From sequence record DRR723986_2443: a stretch of 64,000 bases of DNA; one strand, given 5' to 3'. The position numbers and the translations under genes are program-made. Positions 35,943 to 45,009 of this stretch are shown here, in pieces; the first letter of the stretch is position 1, and the number at the start of each line of letters is the position of its first letter. Below the pieces are notes generated by a model. That model saw nothing but the letters and a program-made list of their open reading frames with translations, did no database searches and was not told the DNA's origin.

Positions 35943-37661
35943 GTGAAGTGTATTATTAAAACAGCGGCGTTGATGGCAGCGCTTGCAGTGTCTGCATCGG
36001 TTCAGGCAAACGATGAAGCAGCACGCAAGTGGATTGACGCTGAATTCCAGCCTTCTACGCTGACCAAAGACCAGCAAGCTAGTGAAATGGCGTGGTTTGC
36101 CGCCGCCGCCGCGCCGTTCAAGGGCATGGAAATTAACGTGGTGTCAGAAACCCTGACCACCCATGAGTATGAAGCCAAAGTGCTGGCGCAGGCCTTTTTT
36201 GAGATTACCGGCATTCGGGTGAACCACGACCTGATCGGTGAAGGCGATGTGGTTGAAAAGCTACAAACCCAGATGCAGTCGGGTCGCAATATTTATGATG
36301 CTTACATCAACGACAGCGACCTGATCGGCACGCATTACCGTTACAACCAAGTGCGGAACCTGACCGACTGGATGGCAGGCGAGGGTGCAAGTGTGACGTC
36401 GCCAACGCTCGATATAGATGATTTCATTGGCAAAAGCTTCACCACCGCACCGGACGGAAAGTTATACCAGCTGCCGGACCAGCAATTCGCCAACCTATAT
36501 TGGTTCCGGTATGACTGGTTCACCAACCCTGACCTGAAAGCGCAGTTTAAAGCCAAATATGGCTATGATTTGGGCGTGCCGGTGAATTGGTCAGCTTATG
36601 AAGACATCGCCAACTTCTTCAGCAATGATGTGGGCGAAATTAACGGCGAAAAAGTATACGGCCATATGGACTACGGCAAGAAAGACCCGTCGCTAGGCTG
36701 GCGTTTCACCGATGCGTGGCTTTCGATGGCGGGTGCGGGCGATGTGGGCCTGCCCAACGGCAAACCGGTGGACGAATGGGGCATTAGGGTTGAAGGCTGC
36801 CACCCTGCGGGTTCAAGCGTAACACGCGGCGGTGCCACCAACGGCCCGGCGGCGGTGTATTCGGTGACCAAATATATTGATTGGTTGCAAAATTATGCCC
36901 CGCCAACCGCAGGCGGCATGACCTTTAGCGAGGCTGGCCCGGTTCCGGCGCAGGGGGCCATTGCCCAGCAAATTTTCTGGTACACTGCTTTTACCGCCGA
37001 CATGGTGAAGCCCGGCATTGCCGTCATGGACGGTGAAAGCCCCAAATGGCGCATGGCGCCAAGCCCGCGCGGCGCTTACTACGACGAAGGCATGAAGCTG
37101 GGGTATCAGGACACCGGCGCATGGACCCTGATGAAATCAACCCCGGTTGATCGGGCGCAGGCGGCTTGGCTTTATGCGCAGTTCGTTGTGTCCAAAACTG
37201 TGAGCTTGAAGAAAAGCCATGTGGGCCTGACCTTTGTGCGCGAAAGCGACATTTGGGATGATAGTATGACGGAGCGCGCGCCCGCGCTGGGTGGGCTGGT
37301 TGAATTTTACCGGTCTAACTCTCGTATTCTCTGGACACCCACCGGCACCAACATTCCTGATTACCCGCGCCTTGCACAGCTATGGTGGCAAGACATCGGC
37401 GATGCGATTTCGGGCGATAAAACCCCGCAAGAGGCCCTGGACAGCCTTGCCAACCAACAAGACCGTATCCTCCGCCGTCTTGAGCGTGCGAACGTGCAGA
37501 AAACCTGCGGGCCAAAGTTGAATGCGCCCAAGAGCGCTGATTATTGGCTCAACCAGCCCGGCGCGCCTAAAGCAAAACTGGCTAACGAAAAACCGCAGGG
37601 CGTGACTGTTGACTATGATGAGTTGATCAAATCGTGGGCGGCAGTGCCGAGAGGCGAATAA
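35943..37661 (+). CDS. ABC substrate-binding protein (GlpV-like)
   Basis: Signal peptide; EFQPSTL, VSETLTTHEYE, QLPDQQFANLYWFR, KKDPSLGWRFTDAW. Confidence 0.88.
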   Translation: MKCIIKTAALMAALAVSASVQANDEAARKWIDAEFQPSTLTKDQQASEMAWFAAAAAPFKGMEINVVSETLTTHEYEAKVLAQAFFEITGIRVNHDLIGEGDVVEKLQTQMQSGRNIYDAYINDSDLIGTHYRYNQVRNLTDWMAGEGASVTSPTLDIDDFIGKSFTTAPDGKLYQLPDQQFANLYWFRYDWFTNPDLKAQFKAKYGYDLGVPVNWSAYEDIANFFSNDVGEINGEKVYGHMDYGKKDPSLGWRFTDAWLSMAGAGDVGLPNGKPVDEWGIRVEGCHPAGSSVTRGGATNGPAAVYSVTKYIDWLQNYAPPTAGGMTFSEAGPVPAQGAIAQQIFWYTAFTADMVKPGIAVMDGESPKWRMAPSPRGAYYDEGMKLGYQDTGAWTLMKSTPVDRAQAAWLYAQFVVSKTVSLKKSHVGLTFVRESDIWDDSMTERAPALGGLVEFYRSNSRILWTPTGTNIPDYPRLAQLWWQDIGDAISGDKTPQEALDSLANQQDRILRRLERANVQKTCGPKLNAPKSADYWLNQPGAPKAKLANEKPQGVTVDYDELIKSWAAVPRGE

Positions 37662-40639: not shown

Positions 40640-41161
40640 TTATCTGGTGACCACGTCGCGGTACATGGGCGCGAGTTTCGCCAACAGTTTATTTTGGCTA
40701 CTGAACGGAACGCCTTCTTTGTTCATGGCTTGCTGCATAAGTTCAACCAGAATGTTGAACTCGCGCCGGGTTACACCTTGATCTTTATGGGAGGCTTTCA
40801 TTGTTTGGCCGGTGTAGGTGCAGGGGCCACCAAGCAAGTAACACAGCTGTTCCTTGAGCGTGCGGCGCAGGCGCACCAAATCACTGGCCCGGAAAATGTT
40901 TTTCGTGCGCGGGTCGGTGGTCAGGCGGGCAACCAAATCATCAGTTATTCTGTCAATGCCTTCCTTGCCGTTAAAGGCCTTGAAAAGCTTGTCATTCTCA
41001 AAGGGTTCAGCACCGGCGTTGGCGTTGCTTTGAACATAGGGCTTAACGGCATATTCGCCGTTTGGCAGTTTTTTCTCAATATCATCCTCAGCATCCTGCG
41101 CCAATGAAACGGTGGGCGCCGCCAAAAGCATTACTGCTGCAAATAGCAACTTTATGTCCAT
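40640..41161 (-). CDS. Group I truncated hemoglobin with signal peptide
   Basis: LFKAFNGKEGI, DPR..IF, GGPCTYTG, proximal His in MKASH; Sec signal ending SLA-Q. Confidence 0.88.
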   Translation of the reverse strand: MDIKLLFAAVMLLAAPTVSLAQDAEDDIEKKLPNGEYAVKPYVQSNANAGAEPFENDKLFKAFNGKEGIDRITDDLVARLTTDPRTKNIFRASDLVRLRRTLKEQLCYLLGGPCTYTGQTMKASHKDQGVTRREFNILVELMQQAMNKEGVPFSSQNKLLAKLAPMYRDVVTR

Positions 41162-41162
41162 A

Positions 41163-42038
41163 TTAAAATCCTATCTGTGCCGTCAGGTACACGCCTTGTT
41201 GGTTTTCAAAGGTCACCACATCACCCAAGTTGCCGTATGCAGCCGTTAGGGTGAAATTTTCGGTTGGGGCATAGGCGATAAACACATCAAACCAGTCGTC
41301 TTCGTTCGCGAAGGCGAGGCTATTTGGTTTGAAGCGATATTCACCACCAATAATAAGTTTTCGGGATAGCAGGTAGCCTACAGAAAACTCTGGTTGGATT
41401 GTGGCTTGCGGCCCGAAGCCCAGGAAACCACCTTGGTTGGCGCGGGTGCGGCGCAGTGTTGCGTTTACGAGTAAACTTTGGCTGAGAAACAGTTTTGTTG
41501 CAGAGATGTACAGGTCCACCCCTTCGTTGTCTTCCGCGCCCAAGGCCTGCACCAAACCAGCTTGATTATTGCGTTTATAGAGCGCACCGACGGATATCTG
41601 CGGCAGCAGTGTGTGCTGGTCCAAAACCGCATCACCAATTAAGCGCACTTTGGCGCCGAAAACGTCTTGGTTTATGGTAAAGCCCGCACCCAACCCCAGC
41701 GCGGCACCTGCTTCTTGTGTATCGAAAGCCTGCCTCGAATATGATAGTTCAAACCGGTCGAAAAATCCAACCGCTGCGCCGTAACTTGTGACCTTAAAGT
41801 CATTCACTGACACATGCGTGTAATGCGCTGTAGCACCAATGCCGCGGTCAGTTTCATTGCCGGTGATGATGGCCCACGGTGTAAGGGCACCGCCGCCGCT
41901 ACCTTCCAAAGCGGAAATGCCGCGTGTCAGCAATAGTTTGCCGCCAACCTCAAGGTCGTCAGCGCTGGCAAACTGAGAAGAAAAAATTAGGCCTAACGCG
42001 GCAATAAGTAAGGTCTTGGGTGTCATAATTTTGTTCAC
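41163..42038 (-). CDS. DUF3034-like outer-membrane beta-barrel protein
   Basis: GKLLLTRGISALEGSGGGALTPWAII, LPQISVG, GEYRFKP; C-terminal YLTAQIGF barrel signal. Start may be ATG 42026. Confidence 0.82.
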   Translation of the reverse strand: MNKIMTPKTLLIAALGLIFSSQFASADDLEVGGKLLLTRGISALEGSGGGALTPWAIITGNETDRGIGATAHYTHVSVNDFKVTSYGAAVGFFDRFELSYSRQAFDTQEAGAALGLGAGFTINQDVFGAKVRLIGDAVLDQHTLLPQISVGALYKRNNQAGLVQALGAEDNEGVDLYISATKLFLSQSLLVNATLRRTRANQGGFLGFGPQATIQPEFSVGYLLSRKLIIGGEYRFKPNSLAFANEDDWFDVFIAYAPTENFTLTAAYGNLGDVVTFENQQGVYLTAQIGF

Positions 42039-42163
42039 CGGTTGATATCAGGTCTGTGTACTCTTGAAATTGACGCTAATTGACATGGGTTAATTATACC
42101 TTAAAAGTGATGCCTACTCTGGAGTTAACTGTTCCGTAATTTCTTGCTTGGTATGGTGCCTTT

Positions 42164-42769
42164 ATGAAGACGCTGTGTATTATTTTATTGAGCCTTTTTT
42201 GCTCTGCCACAGGGTATGCTGACGCATTACCTGTAAAAGTAGTGGATGCGGGCGGCTCGCCCGTTGAAAACGCTATTATTACGCTAGAGCGGTCTGACGG
42301 GGAAAGCAAGATTGCGCCCGATGCCGATACCGAAAACTACAGAATGTCTCAGCGTAATTTACAGTTCCGCCCGTTTGTCCTCGTCGTACCTGTCGGCGCG
42401 GAGGTAGAGTTTCCCAATTTGGACCGGGTTCGTCACCACGTATATTCTTTTTCCAAGGGAAATCGGTTCCAATTGAAGTTATACGGCCGCGAAGAAGCCC
42501 GGTTTGTCACCTTTGAAAATGCGGGTGTGGCAGCCATTGGCTGTAACATTCATGATGACATGCTTGCCTTTATCAAAGTTACCGATGCTGTTGTGGTGGG
42601 TAAAACAGACGCTTTGGGCCAAGTAGAACTTGAGATGTCAAATGGAGAAGGCCGCATAAAAATATGGCATCCGTTCATTAAGGGTAATGAGATTGAGGTT
42701 GATCTTAGCCAGCAAGTTGCCGGTGAAGAAATGGTCATATCTATTGAAATAACGGACCCGTCTCAGTAG
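42164..42769 (+). CDS. Exported cupredoxin-domain protein (often annotated 'methylamine utilization protein')
   Basis: FPNLDRVRHHVYSFS ... GCNIHDDM (His, Cys-x2-His-x2-Met type-1 Cu ligands); signal peptide. Confidence 0.82.
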   Translation: MKTLCIILLSLFCSATGYADALPVKVVDAGGSPVENAIITLERSDGESKIAPDADTENYRMSQRNLQFRPFVLVVPVGAEVEFPNLDRVRHHVYSFSKGNRFQLKLYGREEARFVTFENAGVAAIGCNIHDDMLAFIKVTDAVVVGKTDALGQVELEMSNGEGRIKIWHPFIKGNEIEVDLSQQVAGEEMVISIEITDPSQ

Positions 42770-42771
42770 CT

Positions 42772-45009
42772 ATGTTCAAGCAGTTAAGAACAAAATTGAC
42801 CATTGTTTATTGCCTGCTATTCGCAACGGTTATTTCAGTTATTTCTTTTGCAGGCTTTCTTTATATTCAGGCCAATACTGAACAAACGATCAATCGAGAA
42901 CTGGTGAACTCAGTCGGCGTTTTTGAGAAGCTGTGGGACCTGCGCCGCGCGGGCTTGAGAGATAGTTTGGAAGTGGTTTCCAAGGATTTTGGTTTCAGGG
43001 AAGCGGTTGCAACAGAAGATATTCCCACCATTCAATCATCCCTTGCTAATTTGCAGCAAAGGCTGGAGTTGGAGATTGTTTTTGTCGTCACCAGAGCGGG
43101 CGAGGTCATTTCATATGACGAAACCGGGGCTTTGGATACAGACGGCAAGATATATGCCCACTTGCAATCTAATGATACATCCACGGGTGCCTTTTCATTG
43201 AACGGTTCGGTTTACCAAGCGGTTTCTGCACCCATATTAGCACCAACAAAAATGGGCTGGCTTGTTCTTGCGGACGAGCAAGACAGGGAACAATTGCAGG
43301 CTGTTGAAGACCTCACACCTGTACCGGTTTCTGCGACATTAGTATTGGGCGCGAGTGAACAGCAACAAACTCTTACAAAAAGCGATGCTTATCTTTCAAT
43401 CATCAAACCAATCGAGAATTTTTTCGGTGAGCTTGGCCCTCATATCAGTATCACTTTTCCCGTTGAGTTGGCGTTAGAGCCATATGAATCGCTGCTGTTT
43501 GCAATCGCCACTTTCTCGGCGCTAGGCATGATTGTTATTGTGTTTGCAACCTGGCGGTTATCCTCGGATCTGACCAAGCCGATTTCGAGATTGGACCGCG
43601 CGGTGCGCGCCTTTGCGACTGGCGAGAAGGTCGCGGTTGATGTGCGCTCTAATGATGAAGTGAGCAGGCTTGCGGGAAATTTCAATTTAATGGTTGAAGA
43701 AATAACAGACCGCGAAAGTGAAATCATTCGCCTGTCAGAGGAAGACAGTGAAACGCAACTGCCCAATAGACGCGCAATTGAGGGACAACTTGATCAGTTA
43801 GAATCGTTGGACAAAACACTAGCTATTACGCTGCGTATAAAGCGTTTTGGCCACATAAGAAACGCCATTGGCCATCGACTGGCTGCTCAATTGTTGGTGG
43901 AGTTGCGCCAGAGAATTGAGGATATTTTTGATGATGTTGTGGTAGCACGAACGGGTGCCTCGGATGTGTCATTTCTTCTTCCATTAAGAGACTTGGAGGA
44001 ACAAACAGCAGAGCTGGCGGTTGTTGTAACGGATTGCGCCCGGCCAGTTCAATTTGAAGACGGTGACGTTGATTTGCTTTTATGTTGCGGTGTTGCATTA
44101 GGTATTCAAAGTCATGTCTTGCCCATATCATTGGTTGACCAAGCCATTGTTGCCGCTGACCAAGCCGAGCGGGAACACAGACAAATATCTGTTTTCAATA
44201 TTGATGACTACGGCCAGCCAAGCGAGACACTTTCGTTGATGAGTGAAATGATCACGGGATTGCGTGATCGGGACTTGTTTTTAGCACTACAACCCAAATT
44301 ATGTTTACGCACGGGCGCTGTCACAAGCTTTGAAGCGCTTATTCGCTGGAAGCATCCGGAGCGAGGCTTTATTTTCCCCGATCAGTTTATTCCGATGGCG
44401 GAAGAAACCGGCTATATTAAGCAACTAACCGAATGGGTTGTTTCTGAGGCGCTGGTCCAACAAAGTAGCCTGCGCGAGCATGGCTATGATTTGCCGATTG
44501 CTGTTAATGTTTCGGGACGCCAGTTAACCGATAAAAGTTTTATTCACTGGGCCATATCTGCCTGCAAAAAGGCAAAGGGTTCTTTGTATTTTGAAGTAAC
44601 AGAAACTGCCATTATCGCTGATATGACGATTGCAAGCGAACTGATGGTGTTGCTGAAAAAAAATGGTATTCGCATTTCTATCGATGACTATGGAACCGGC
44701 CAATCGTCTTTGTCGTACCTGCAGCAAATACCGGCGGATGAGTTAAAAATTGATCGATGTTTTGTCATGAACCTTGTTAAAAGTGAACAAGACAAATTGT
44801 TGATTAAGTCCACCGTTGAAATTGCTCATGCGATGGGCATGGCCGTGGTTGCAGAGGGCGTGGAAGACGCTGAAACGCTGGAAATTCTCAAAAACTATCA
44901 TGTTGATACGGCACAAGGGTATCATATTATGCGGCCGGCTGCGCTCCCAGAGGCACTCGAGTTTCTTAAAAAGCACAATCAAGAGAGTTTGATAGGCGCG
45001 TTAAGTTAA
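42772..45009 (+). CDS. Membrane sensor-HAMP-degenerate GGDEF-EAL c-di-GMP phosphodiesterase
   Basis: Two TM helices flanking a periplasmic domain; HAMP (DEVSRLAGNFN); GGDEF site reads GASDV; EAL domain intact (QPK, EALIRW, VNVS, EVTE, DDYGTG, KID, AEGVE, QG). Confidence 0.9.
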   Translation: MFKQLRTKLTIVYCLLFATVISVISFAGFLYIQANTEQTINRELVNSVGVFEKLWDLRRAGLRDSLEVVSKDFGFREAVATEDIPTIQSSLANLQQRLELEIVFVVTRAGEVISYDETGALDTDGKIYAHLQSNDTSTGAFSLNGSVYQAVSAPILAPTKMGWLVLADEQDREQLQAVEDLTPVPVSATLVLGASEQQQTLTKSDAYLSIIKPIENFFGELGPHISITFPVELALEPYESLLFAIATFSALGMIVIVFATWRLSSDLTKPISRLDRAVRAFATGEKVAVDVRSNDEVSRLAGNFNLMVEEITDRESEIIRLSEEDSETQLPNRRAIEGQLDQLESLDKTLAITLRIKRFGHIRNAIGHRLAAQLLVELRQRIEDIFDDVVVARTGASDVSFLLPLRDLEEQTAELAVVVTDCARPVQFEDGDVDLLLCCGVALGIQSHVLPISLVDQAIVAADQAEREHRQISVFNIDDYGQPSETLSLMSEMITGLRDRDLFLALQPKLCLRTGAVTSFEALIRWKHPERGFIFPDQFIPMAEETGYIKQLTEWVVSEALVQQSSLREHGYDLPIAVNVSGRQLTDKSFIHWAISACKKAKGSLYFEVTETAIIADMTIASELMVLLKKNGIRISIDDYGTGQSSLSYLQQIPADELKIDRCFVMNLVKSEQDKLLIKSTVEIAHAMGMAVVAEGVEDAETLEILKNYHVDTAQGYHIMRPAALPEALEFLKKHNQESLIGALS

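Follow-up and report, generated by a model that had tools for sequence, protein, structure and literature searches.

The 64,000-nucleotide stretch of DNA analyzed here (sequence record DRR723986_2443; hereafter, the window) carries, between positions 40640 and 45009, four genes for cell-envelope proteins which constitute a conserved module, associated far beyond chance. The module is composed of two halves, one encoding an outer-membrane beta-barrel of the DUF3034 family together with an exported truncated haemoglobin, and the other an exported blue-copper protein together with an inner-membrane receptor-phosphodiesterase for cyclic di-GMP (c-di-GMP). We give about an even chance to the proposal that the two halves form a trans-envelope redox relay, leading from a channel-anchored globin through a copper shuttle to the receptor and controlling c-di-GMP. 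The proposal builds on gene content, co-occurrence, fusions, predicted folds, conserved ligands and a promoter box. The module is real and widespread, and apparently undescribed: in keeping with an earlier sequence-only reading of the window, which knew of no functional description, no paper on it was found in a search of mostly open-access texts, so that a mention under locus tags or in supplements is possible.

The sequence-only reading had noted two tight, divergent gene pairs around an intergenic region of about 125 bp, with all four products targeted to the envelope, and both points were borne out. On the minus strand lie the genes for the globin (40640..41161; 173 aa, a group I, TrHbN-2-like truncated haemoglobin with a Sec signal peptide) and the DUF3034 outer-membrane protein (41163..42038; 291 aa, a predicted 12-stranded beta-barrel with the C-terminal Phe also noticed earlier), and on the plus strand those for the exported two-domain blue-copper protein (42164..42769; 201 aa) and the inner-membrane receptor-phosphodiesterase (42772..45009; 745 aa). 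The gaps within the pairs measure 1 bp and 2 bp, and the divergent promoter region between them (42039..42163) is 125 bp long. Pfam recognized Bac_globin (E 3e-14) and DUF3034 (E 7e-93), gave no match for the copper protein, and resolved the receptor into CHASE4/dCache_3, HAMP, GGDEF and EAL domains.

The association was assessed in 401 Pseudomonadota genomes drawn evenly across the phylum, all counts being raw and uncorrected for relatedness. DUF3034 is present in 41 of the 401 genomes, the copper-protein family in 68, including 40 of the 41 with DUF3034, and the module-type globin in 43, namely all 41 barrel genomes and two orphans (threshold of at least 135 bits, the next score being 92, with a profile built partly from module loci). 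Barrel and globin genes are adjacent in all 41 sampled loci and, when a single locus is counted per genome (a second, broken copy in genome G116 being set aside), 30 of the 41 have all four genes at most 8 kb from the barrel; the co-occurrence in other Proteobacteria that the sequence-only reading had mentioned is thus substantiated by the DUF3034 neighbourhood census. Among 80 metagenome loci (best matches and hence biased towards close kin), 29 offer 4 kb of sequence to either side; all four genes were present in 24 of them, and also in each of the three plasmid loci examined out of 16 matches. Plasmid annotations name the products DUF3034, group 1 truncated hemoglobin, methylamine utilization (or carboxypeptidase regulatory-like) protein and EAL protein. 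Gene order varies, with divergent pairs, copper protein-receptor-barrel-globin and barrel-globin-copper protein-receptor arrangements in which both pairs stay intact; the 30 complete loci display at least four orders and often form a single overlapping operon. In 81 of the 101 loci with room for it, the Cache receptor gene comes immediately after the copper gene. A scan of contigs with a single barrel sequence returned one weak partial match, which PF11231 did not confirm in that genome.

Parts of the module are fused in some lineages and exchanged in others. Signal peptide, globin and barrel form single chains in L055, P0249/P0393 and P0258, the fusion search having listed 150 representatives, scanned 11 longer ones and recovered two clusters beyond L055. 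A search for longer barrel fusions (511-2000 aa) yielded a single chimera of barrel and beta-lactamase, located on a contig of 2 kb, which we judged an artefact. The receptor output is a Ser/Thr kinase in L044 (where barrel and globin are also present) and L177, a hybrid His kinase in L179 and L180, where the globin is replaced by a haem protein of the MauG/CCP type, and an adenylate/guanylate cyclase in L167, whereas three operons that are otherwise complete (L107:1719-2846, L112:5671-6795 and L114:1904-3037) encode a receptor with a Cache domain between two transmembrane (TM) segments followed by HAMP, without an output domain. Hydrolysis of c-di-GMP, the output proposed in the sequence-only reading, is not supported as the only one. 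The copper protein, a MauG/CCP di-haem protein and a Cache-like hybrid histidine kinase are found together in L179:1938-6546, L180:5908-9820 and L184.

The channel is exchanged as well. An exported porin-like family of ~410 aa, without a Pfam match, adjoins the copper gene in 11 of 28 copper loci sampled away from DUF3034 (L157, L162-L165 and L171-L176) and is accompanied by the receptor in seven of these 11; L095:7908-9161 has this second porin in addition to DUF3034 barrel-globin. Its 13 matches in the 401 genomes comprise the 11 copper-gene loci, a partly circular count, and two that are not beside a copper gene. On a 69-row tree of copper proteins, the second-porin label needs six changes, at least three of them forced by strong branches. 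We found no profile similarity between the second porin and DUF3034 and no PDB sequence relative of the former; an unrelated porin repeatedly replaces barrel-globin. Because the swaps repeatedly yield a channel, a metal protein and a membrane-crossing or redox regulator, this recurrence argues for a signalling role and suggests a link to redox stress. The trans-envelope relay envisaged in the sequence-only reading is hence strengthened as regards a signalling module, by fusions, output swapping and channel replacement.

The globin belongs to the group I truncated haemoglobins (TrHbN), PF01152 scoring above its cut-off and the best PDB match being HbN (E 1e-13). Its key residues are the proximal His125 (F8), Gln at E14, a Cys107/Cys114 pair and a non-polar distal pocket (B10 Val77, CD1 Phe90, E7 Leu98, E11 Leu102 and G8 Leu138). 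In an alignment of 109 module globins, His F8 is present in 107 of 107 covered rows, B10 is Val, Met, Leu or Ile (Tyr in 2), E7 is Leu, Phe, Ile or Val, E11 is Leu, Phe or Ile, and E14 is mostly Gln, with Cys107 kept in 105 and Cys114 in 104. Hydrophobic B10, E7, E11 and G8 agree with the TrHbN-2 class, an assignment made from residues, SbHbN not being in the tree; the hydrogen-bond network of Tyr B10 and Gln E7/E11 that marks TrHbN-1, or the HbN type of nitric oxide (NO) dioxygenase, is absent. The haem site is of the predicted globin type, the Cys spacing being CX6C rather than CxxCH. By simple rules, all 55 full-length globins aligned have a hydrophobic N-terminus, 16 of them with a lipobox and none with a Tat motif. 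Among 23 other group I globins from the same genomes (3 module-type orphans and 20 lower-scoring matches), the Cys pair occurs in five, each with an N-terminus resembling a signal peptide, and is missing from the 14 whose sequence opens with the globin domain itself. Because the pair is confined to signal-bearing members of this set, we infer that Cys107 and Cys114 form an export-linked disulfide. Judged by the globins described in PMC11904497 and PMC4720485, the non-polar pocket would make neither a tight binder of O2 nor an NO dioxygenase of the HbN type likely, and would suit fast ligand exchange or one-electron chemistry. Given Sec export, the export-linked Cys pair and this pocket, the globin is likely a poor O2 binder, which makes a redox relay a better fit than an O2 sensor; the simple O2 sensing which the sequence-only reading had entertained is disfavoured by the lack of any distal hydrogen-bond donor.

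Divergent-type globins share a conserved N-terminal extension, PGE...VDPY..SNANAGA.P (residues ~33-53; window 41000-41065, minus strand), which is missing from the lipoprotein forms and is a candidate barrel-docking arm. Orphan module-type globins with a signal peptide and the Cys pair occur at L185:5995-6591, L186:5998-6444 and L187:5998-6537 with no barrel nearby, that of L187 having Tyr at B10.

The DUF3034 barrel, whose closest named relatives are from Hyphomonas (~70% identity), starts with GTG, an ATG following four codons further in. Its AlphaFold2 model has 12 strands, with a predicted local distance difference test (pLDDT) score of 81 and residues ~27-67 poorly defined; the N-terminal segment is Gly-rich, conserved (pLDDT 45-67) and a probable plug. 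As expected of outer-membrane beta-barrels, 190 of 199 relatives end in Phe, Tyr or Trp, and the residues conserved over the 199 rows are Gly plus R95, E97, K130, K155, K182, R196, E217, E233 and R235. A fold search against 48,161 chains, with which Foldseek agreed, placed FapF (Z 20.0; root-mean-square deviation 2.7, 217 aligned), KdgM (19.1) and COG4313 (19.0) in a tie at the top, followed by NanC and autotransporter barrels (Z 16-17.6 for the autotransporters). DUF3034 might accordingly be a FapF- or autotransporter-like exporter that places the globin on the surface or outside, to bind haem or to sense. Besides the fold matches, this reading can draw on the fusions, in which a passenger precedes the barrel, and on the Sec export and occasional lipobox of the globin. 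We nevertheless find it improbable: the solute channels KdgM and COG4313 are within 1 Z unit of FapF, the fusion linker is short (16-residue scale), a Fur box is found upstream of the copper gene in 0 of 111 regions, without enrichment, a TonB-dependent receptor accounts for one of the 42 neighbour open reading frames (ORFs) scanned in 11 receptor-less loci, and the copper protein and receptor are left unaccounted for.

In the predicted model of the copper protein (pLDDT 89), a cupredoxin (residues ~58-140) is inserted in a transthyretin/CarboxypepD-like sandwich. The full type-1 copper ligand set, already recognized in the sequence-only reading, consists of H91, C127, H130 and M133 with amicyanin loop spacing and is invariant, H91 being kept in 112 of 112 relatives and the other three in all 111 covering them; the cupredoxin fold and the His...Cys-x2-His-x2-Met pattern are those of the type-1 blue-copper class (amicyanin/plastocyanin). 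The best structural matches of the cupredoxin are the tethered cupredoxin of Thermus NirK (6hbe, Z 12.6), Nitrosopumilus cupredoxins, plastocyanin and amicyanin (1aac, Z 11.4), and the sandwich domain is best matched by an N-terminal extension found in a SusC transporter (Z 10.9). Nearest to the modelled cupredoxin are thus tethered electron-transfer domains and amicyanin, a likeness that may be counted for the relay. In L057:2333-11905 and L156, barrel-globin is duplicated in tandem and accompanied by two copper proteins that have diverged, of which one has a CLLHNWM loop.

The copper protein carries the RefSeq-type annotation name 'methylamine utilization protein' which, along with the amicyanin-like loop and a MauG/CCP neighbour in three distant loci, could suggest that the module is part of methylamine utilisation. 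This is very improbable, given that no methylamine dehydrogenase subunit was found among the flanking window genes scanned or in three annotated plasmid regions, and that none of the NCBIfam models listed for the module proteins reaches its cut-off. Identity with amicyanin or another mau component was likewise rejected on the two-domain model and the same scan of flanking genes. A role in sensing copper, another metal or a solute, in which the channel would admit the solute, the receptor would read holo versus apo cupredoxin and the globin would be accessory, has a low probability in our view, comparable to that of the exporter. The seven globin-free loci with copper gene, receptor and porin would fit it, as would the many conserved charged residues of the barrel, suited to a solute channel. 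The complete and invariant type-1 site argues otherwise, such a site being an electron-transfer design, and so does the CueR box, found upstream of the copper gene in 0 of 111 regions with no enrichment; no copper-resistance genes lie beside the window locus or among the neighbours scanned.

The receptor, on the plus strand, comprises a periplasmic dCache_3/CHASE4-like domain between TM1 and TM2 (~42868-43485), HAMP (43561-43707), a degenerate GGDEF domain (43744-44181) and a catalytically complete EAL domain (44260-44937). The dead GGDEF and intact EAL domains of the sequence-only reading hold for the window protein, whose GGDEF motif reads TGASD, unlike that of an active diguanylate cyclase; family-wide, the former does not hold, GGDEF being intact in 15 of 77 relatives. 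The EAL catalytic set E(xL), N, E, E, DD, K, E, Q is invariant in 77 of 77, and the phosphodiesterase is predicted to be active; one of these receptors has Asp at the second Glu of the EGVE motif. None of the named c-di-GMP enzymes DibA, GepA, DosP, HmsP, LapD and YfiN matched at NCBIfam cut-off among the 25 matches listed, the best score being 239 bits against a cut-off of 980, and no PDB sequence relative of the periplasmic domain was found. Complex prediction for this domain and the copper protein, run without alignments, scored 0.13 against a mark of 0.34. In L035-L037 (e.g., L035:1555-7200), two paralogous receptor-phosphodiesterase genes flank a single copper gene.

The divergent promoter region contains a perfect box for the cell-cycle regulator CtrA, TTAA-N7-TTAAC (42089..42104, minus strand; also readable on the plus strand at 42090-42105 with one mismatch), the only zero-mismatch match in the window to the consensus given in PMC7200025. 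A second, CtrA-like box with one mismatch (42124..42139, minus strand) lies ~25 bp before the copper-protein start, at a position conserved in related loci. One-mismatch matches are no more frequent in the window than chance would predict (10 versus 13.8 expected), so the single window site alone is weak proof. Across loci, the 90 bases before the copper gene contain a match with at most two mismatches in 37 of 42 divergent-type loci (shuffles: mean 9.0, maximum 15) and with at most one in 14 of 42 (0.8 in shuffles), mostly at the same distance from the gene, whereas control upstream regions from 30 of these loci have a match in 2 of 33. There is no such excess in the remaining 69 loci (1 versus 1.3 with at most one mismatch, 15 versus 10.3 with at most two). 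For Hyphomonas neptunium, PMC7200025 records a CtrA chromatin immunoprecipitation (ChIP) peak, number 665 (2.96-fold), common to HNE_2582 and the orthologue HNE_2583, and a 3.5-fold decrease of HNE_2583 on CckA depletion (p 0.02); the gene is unchanged on ChpT depletion, and the authors' table lists it as 'direct regulon: No'. HNE_2584 and HNE_2581 occur in none of the 23 supplementary files of that paper. The ChIP signal pertains to the orthologous H. neptunium locus only, not to that of the window; L211, which encodes a protein identical to HNE_2583, shares the divergent layout and carries, where the peak has its summit, a box with two mismatches. Collectively, CtrA binding at the divergent promoter is likely. 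No enrichment before the copper gene was seen in 111 regions for FNR, FixK, Fur, NsrR, CueR, sigma-54 or CRP consensus motifs, and sigma-70 and terminator scans remained at chance level.

In the relay that we infer from these data, including its haem and copper loading, protein contacts, direction of electron flow, stimulus and regulation of the EAL domain, the DUF3034 barrel would anchor the exported globin at its periplasmic mouth. A substance entering or reacting at the channel, be it an oxidant, a reductant or a haem ligand, would alter the oxidation or ligation state of the haem. An electron would then pass between the type-1 copper protein and the globin, or between the copper protein and a substance admitted by the alternative porin. 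The copper protein would bind or release the periplasmic Cache domain according to its Cu(I)/Cu(II) state, and HAMP would transmit this change so that the EAL domain adjusts its hydrolysis of c-di-GMP. The promoter is in this lineage probably wired to CtrA as well, and the phosphodiesterase arm would then probably belong to a motile, low-c-di-GMP programme. A bolder version, which we advance tentatively and at less than even chance, is that of an inward electron wire akin to the porin-haem-blue-copper chain of iron oxidisers but ending in a Cache-HAMP receptor in place of a terminal oxidase, such that redox state outside the cell or in the periplasm would be converted directly, in some 10% of proteobacterial species, into c-di-GMP, kinase, cyclase or ECF-sigma (extracytoplasmic function sigma factor) output and the ligand of the Cache domain would be a redox-switched metalloprotein.

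Several observations weigh against the relay. Of the 41 sampled loci, five lack the receptor, five lack both receptor and copper gene, and one lacks the copper gene alone; these 11 loci also speak against an obligatory four-part unit. The halves lie at separate sites in four genomes (L158, L159, L161 and L172), and among the loci examined no copper protein is fused to globin, barrel or receptor. The barrel has no His, Met or Cys conserved over the 199 rows for electron passage or metal binding, there is no explanation of how a Sec-exported globin acquires b-haem, and the Cache domain could bind a small ligand by itself. Furthermore, ChrR-cupin anti-sigma factors, which accompany five barrel loci (L102, L104, L121, L124 and L130), are cytoplasmic and cannot read a periplasmic protein, so that barrel-globin there seems to be an output rather than an input. 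ChrR is tied to singlet oxygen.

The regulatory neighbours also speak for two separate, co-regulated devices: barrel-globin would be a stress effector, buffering O2 or handling NO, peroxide or singlet oxygen, and copper protein-receptor an independent redox sensor, the same conditions needing both. An ECF sigma gene lies at most 2.5 kb away in 6 of 16 receptor-less barrel loci versus 0 of 55 with a receptor, counted where 3 kb are available on both sides, and four shorter loci add to these. RskA-type anti-sigma factors are found in five loci (L063, 8914-10476; L065, 5373-6806; L068, 5349-6912; L137; L140), and ferritin-like and Lipoprotein_15 genes are among the neighbours of ECF-linked barrel-globin loci. 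An oxidative-stress Cys pair is described for RskA-linked ECF18/19 sigmas in PMC7826278, and DUF3034 was not found in the examined portion of the ECF classification supplement. The unlinked halves also fit separate devices. This explanation is on balance unlikely, though its chance is appreciable: all four genes are kept together in 30 of 41 loci across at least four orders, the copper gene remains with a channel in the absence of the receptor (five DUF3034 loci and four porin loci), and a second channel has been recruited repeatedly.

The module has a G+C content of 46-52%, versus ~51% for the window, and its flanking genes (acylase, DUF6151, M24 peptidase, Lrp and PutA) are unrelated to it. 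Immediately before a gene for an acylase of the penicillin-amidase family, a 572-aa exported protein is encoded (35943-37661, plus strand), which resembles an ABC solute-binding protein and has no Pfam match at E 0.001.

If the relay is true, roles would emerge for three anonymous families, namely DUF3034, the misnamed 'methylamine utilization protein' and the exported TrHbN-2 clade, and periplasmic truncated haemoglobin would have its first setting. A metalloprotein-based input to c-di-GMP control would then exist in ~10% of the sampled Pseudomonadota genomes, turning the redox state of the cell envelope into a swim-or-stick decision. The proposal is directly testable by means of the single-chain fusions, of the variants with a swapped output and of the orthologue in H. 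neptunium, for which ChIP and expression data exist. Several leads in the literature gave little: the papers that matched DUF3034 concern, as listed, retrons and Streptomyces, PSHAa0458 had no match in the search, papers on Caulobacter copper stress and RusT mention haemoglobin in their references only, with none of the searched terms in the copper-stress supplement, and for P. syringae chp8 (PSPTO_2907), a possible member of the module, the main text of the paper is silent on globin, methylamine and operon.

Known systems share individual traits with the module. Haem state governs c-di-GMP turnover in DosC/DosP, which are cytoplasmic and have 3/3 sensor globins or haem-binding PAS domains fused in cis, whereas the module globin is 2/2 and exported and would act in trans, and the DosP model gives 195 bits against a cut-off of 857. 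In NspS-MbaA of Vibrio cholerae, the proposed partner of a co-encoded periplasmic accessory protein is a GGDEF-EAL protein, contacted at its periplasmic domain; NspS binds a polyamine and, unlike the module, the system is without channel, haem or copper. FapF is a trimer with a helical plug, a periplasmic coiled coil and amyloid substrates. DUF3034 shares with FapF (PMC5557850) and COG4313 a predicted 12-stranded barrel, probably with an N-terminal segment inside, but is only 11-17% identical to these and KdgM and has no long periplasmic coiled coil; no amyloid (fap) genes lie beside the barrel in the window or the annotated regions. SbHbN of Shewanella benthica, a TrHbN-2 globin, has the 2/2 fold, His F8, hydrophobic B10, E7, E11 and G8 and a Cys at E16 in common with the module globins, and low O2 affinity is predicted for its class; it differs in its chain of 116-117 aa, Tyr CD1 and lack of a second Cys in the EF loop (PMC11904497 and PMC4720485), the module globins having signal peptides, Phe CD1, Gln E14, the Cys pair and the tie to a barrel.

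The closest parallels concern the two ends of the chain. In Cyc2-rusticyanin (rus operon) of Acidithiobacillus ferrooxidans, a haem domain N-terminal to an outer-membrane barrel passes electrons to a periplasmic blue-copper protein, with a c-haem, a modelled 16-stranded barrel and a terminal oxidase at the end (bioRxiv 10.1101/2021.03.22.436458). The module has a predicted b-haem globin, 12 strands and a signalling enzyme instead; the likeness is one of analogy, no homology having tested positive, and membership among Cyc2-type porin-cytochromes was rejected on the 12 strands and on CX6C in place of CxxCH. YfiBNR of Pseudomonas aeruginosa likewise combines an outer-membrane part and a small periplasmic protein that control an inner-membrane, HAMP-linked c-di-GMP enzyme, but its parts are an OmpA/Pal lipoprotein (YfiB), a periplasmic protein that lacks a metal centre (YfiR) and a cyclase (YfiN) (PMC2837407), in contrast to the beta-barrel, haem globin, type-1 copper protein and EAL enzyme with swappable output of the module. 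Pfam and NCBIfam detected no OmpA/Pal lipoprotein, YfiR or active diguanylate cyclase among the four proteins, which excludes YfiBNR membership. By analogy, then, the input side of the module resembles Cyc2-rusticyanin and its output side YfiBNR, and it is a member of neither; it belongs with the known class of envelope-spanning c-di-GMP modules, and there is a real chance that it represents a redox signalling chain of a new kind.

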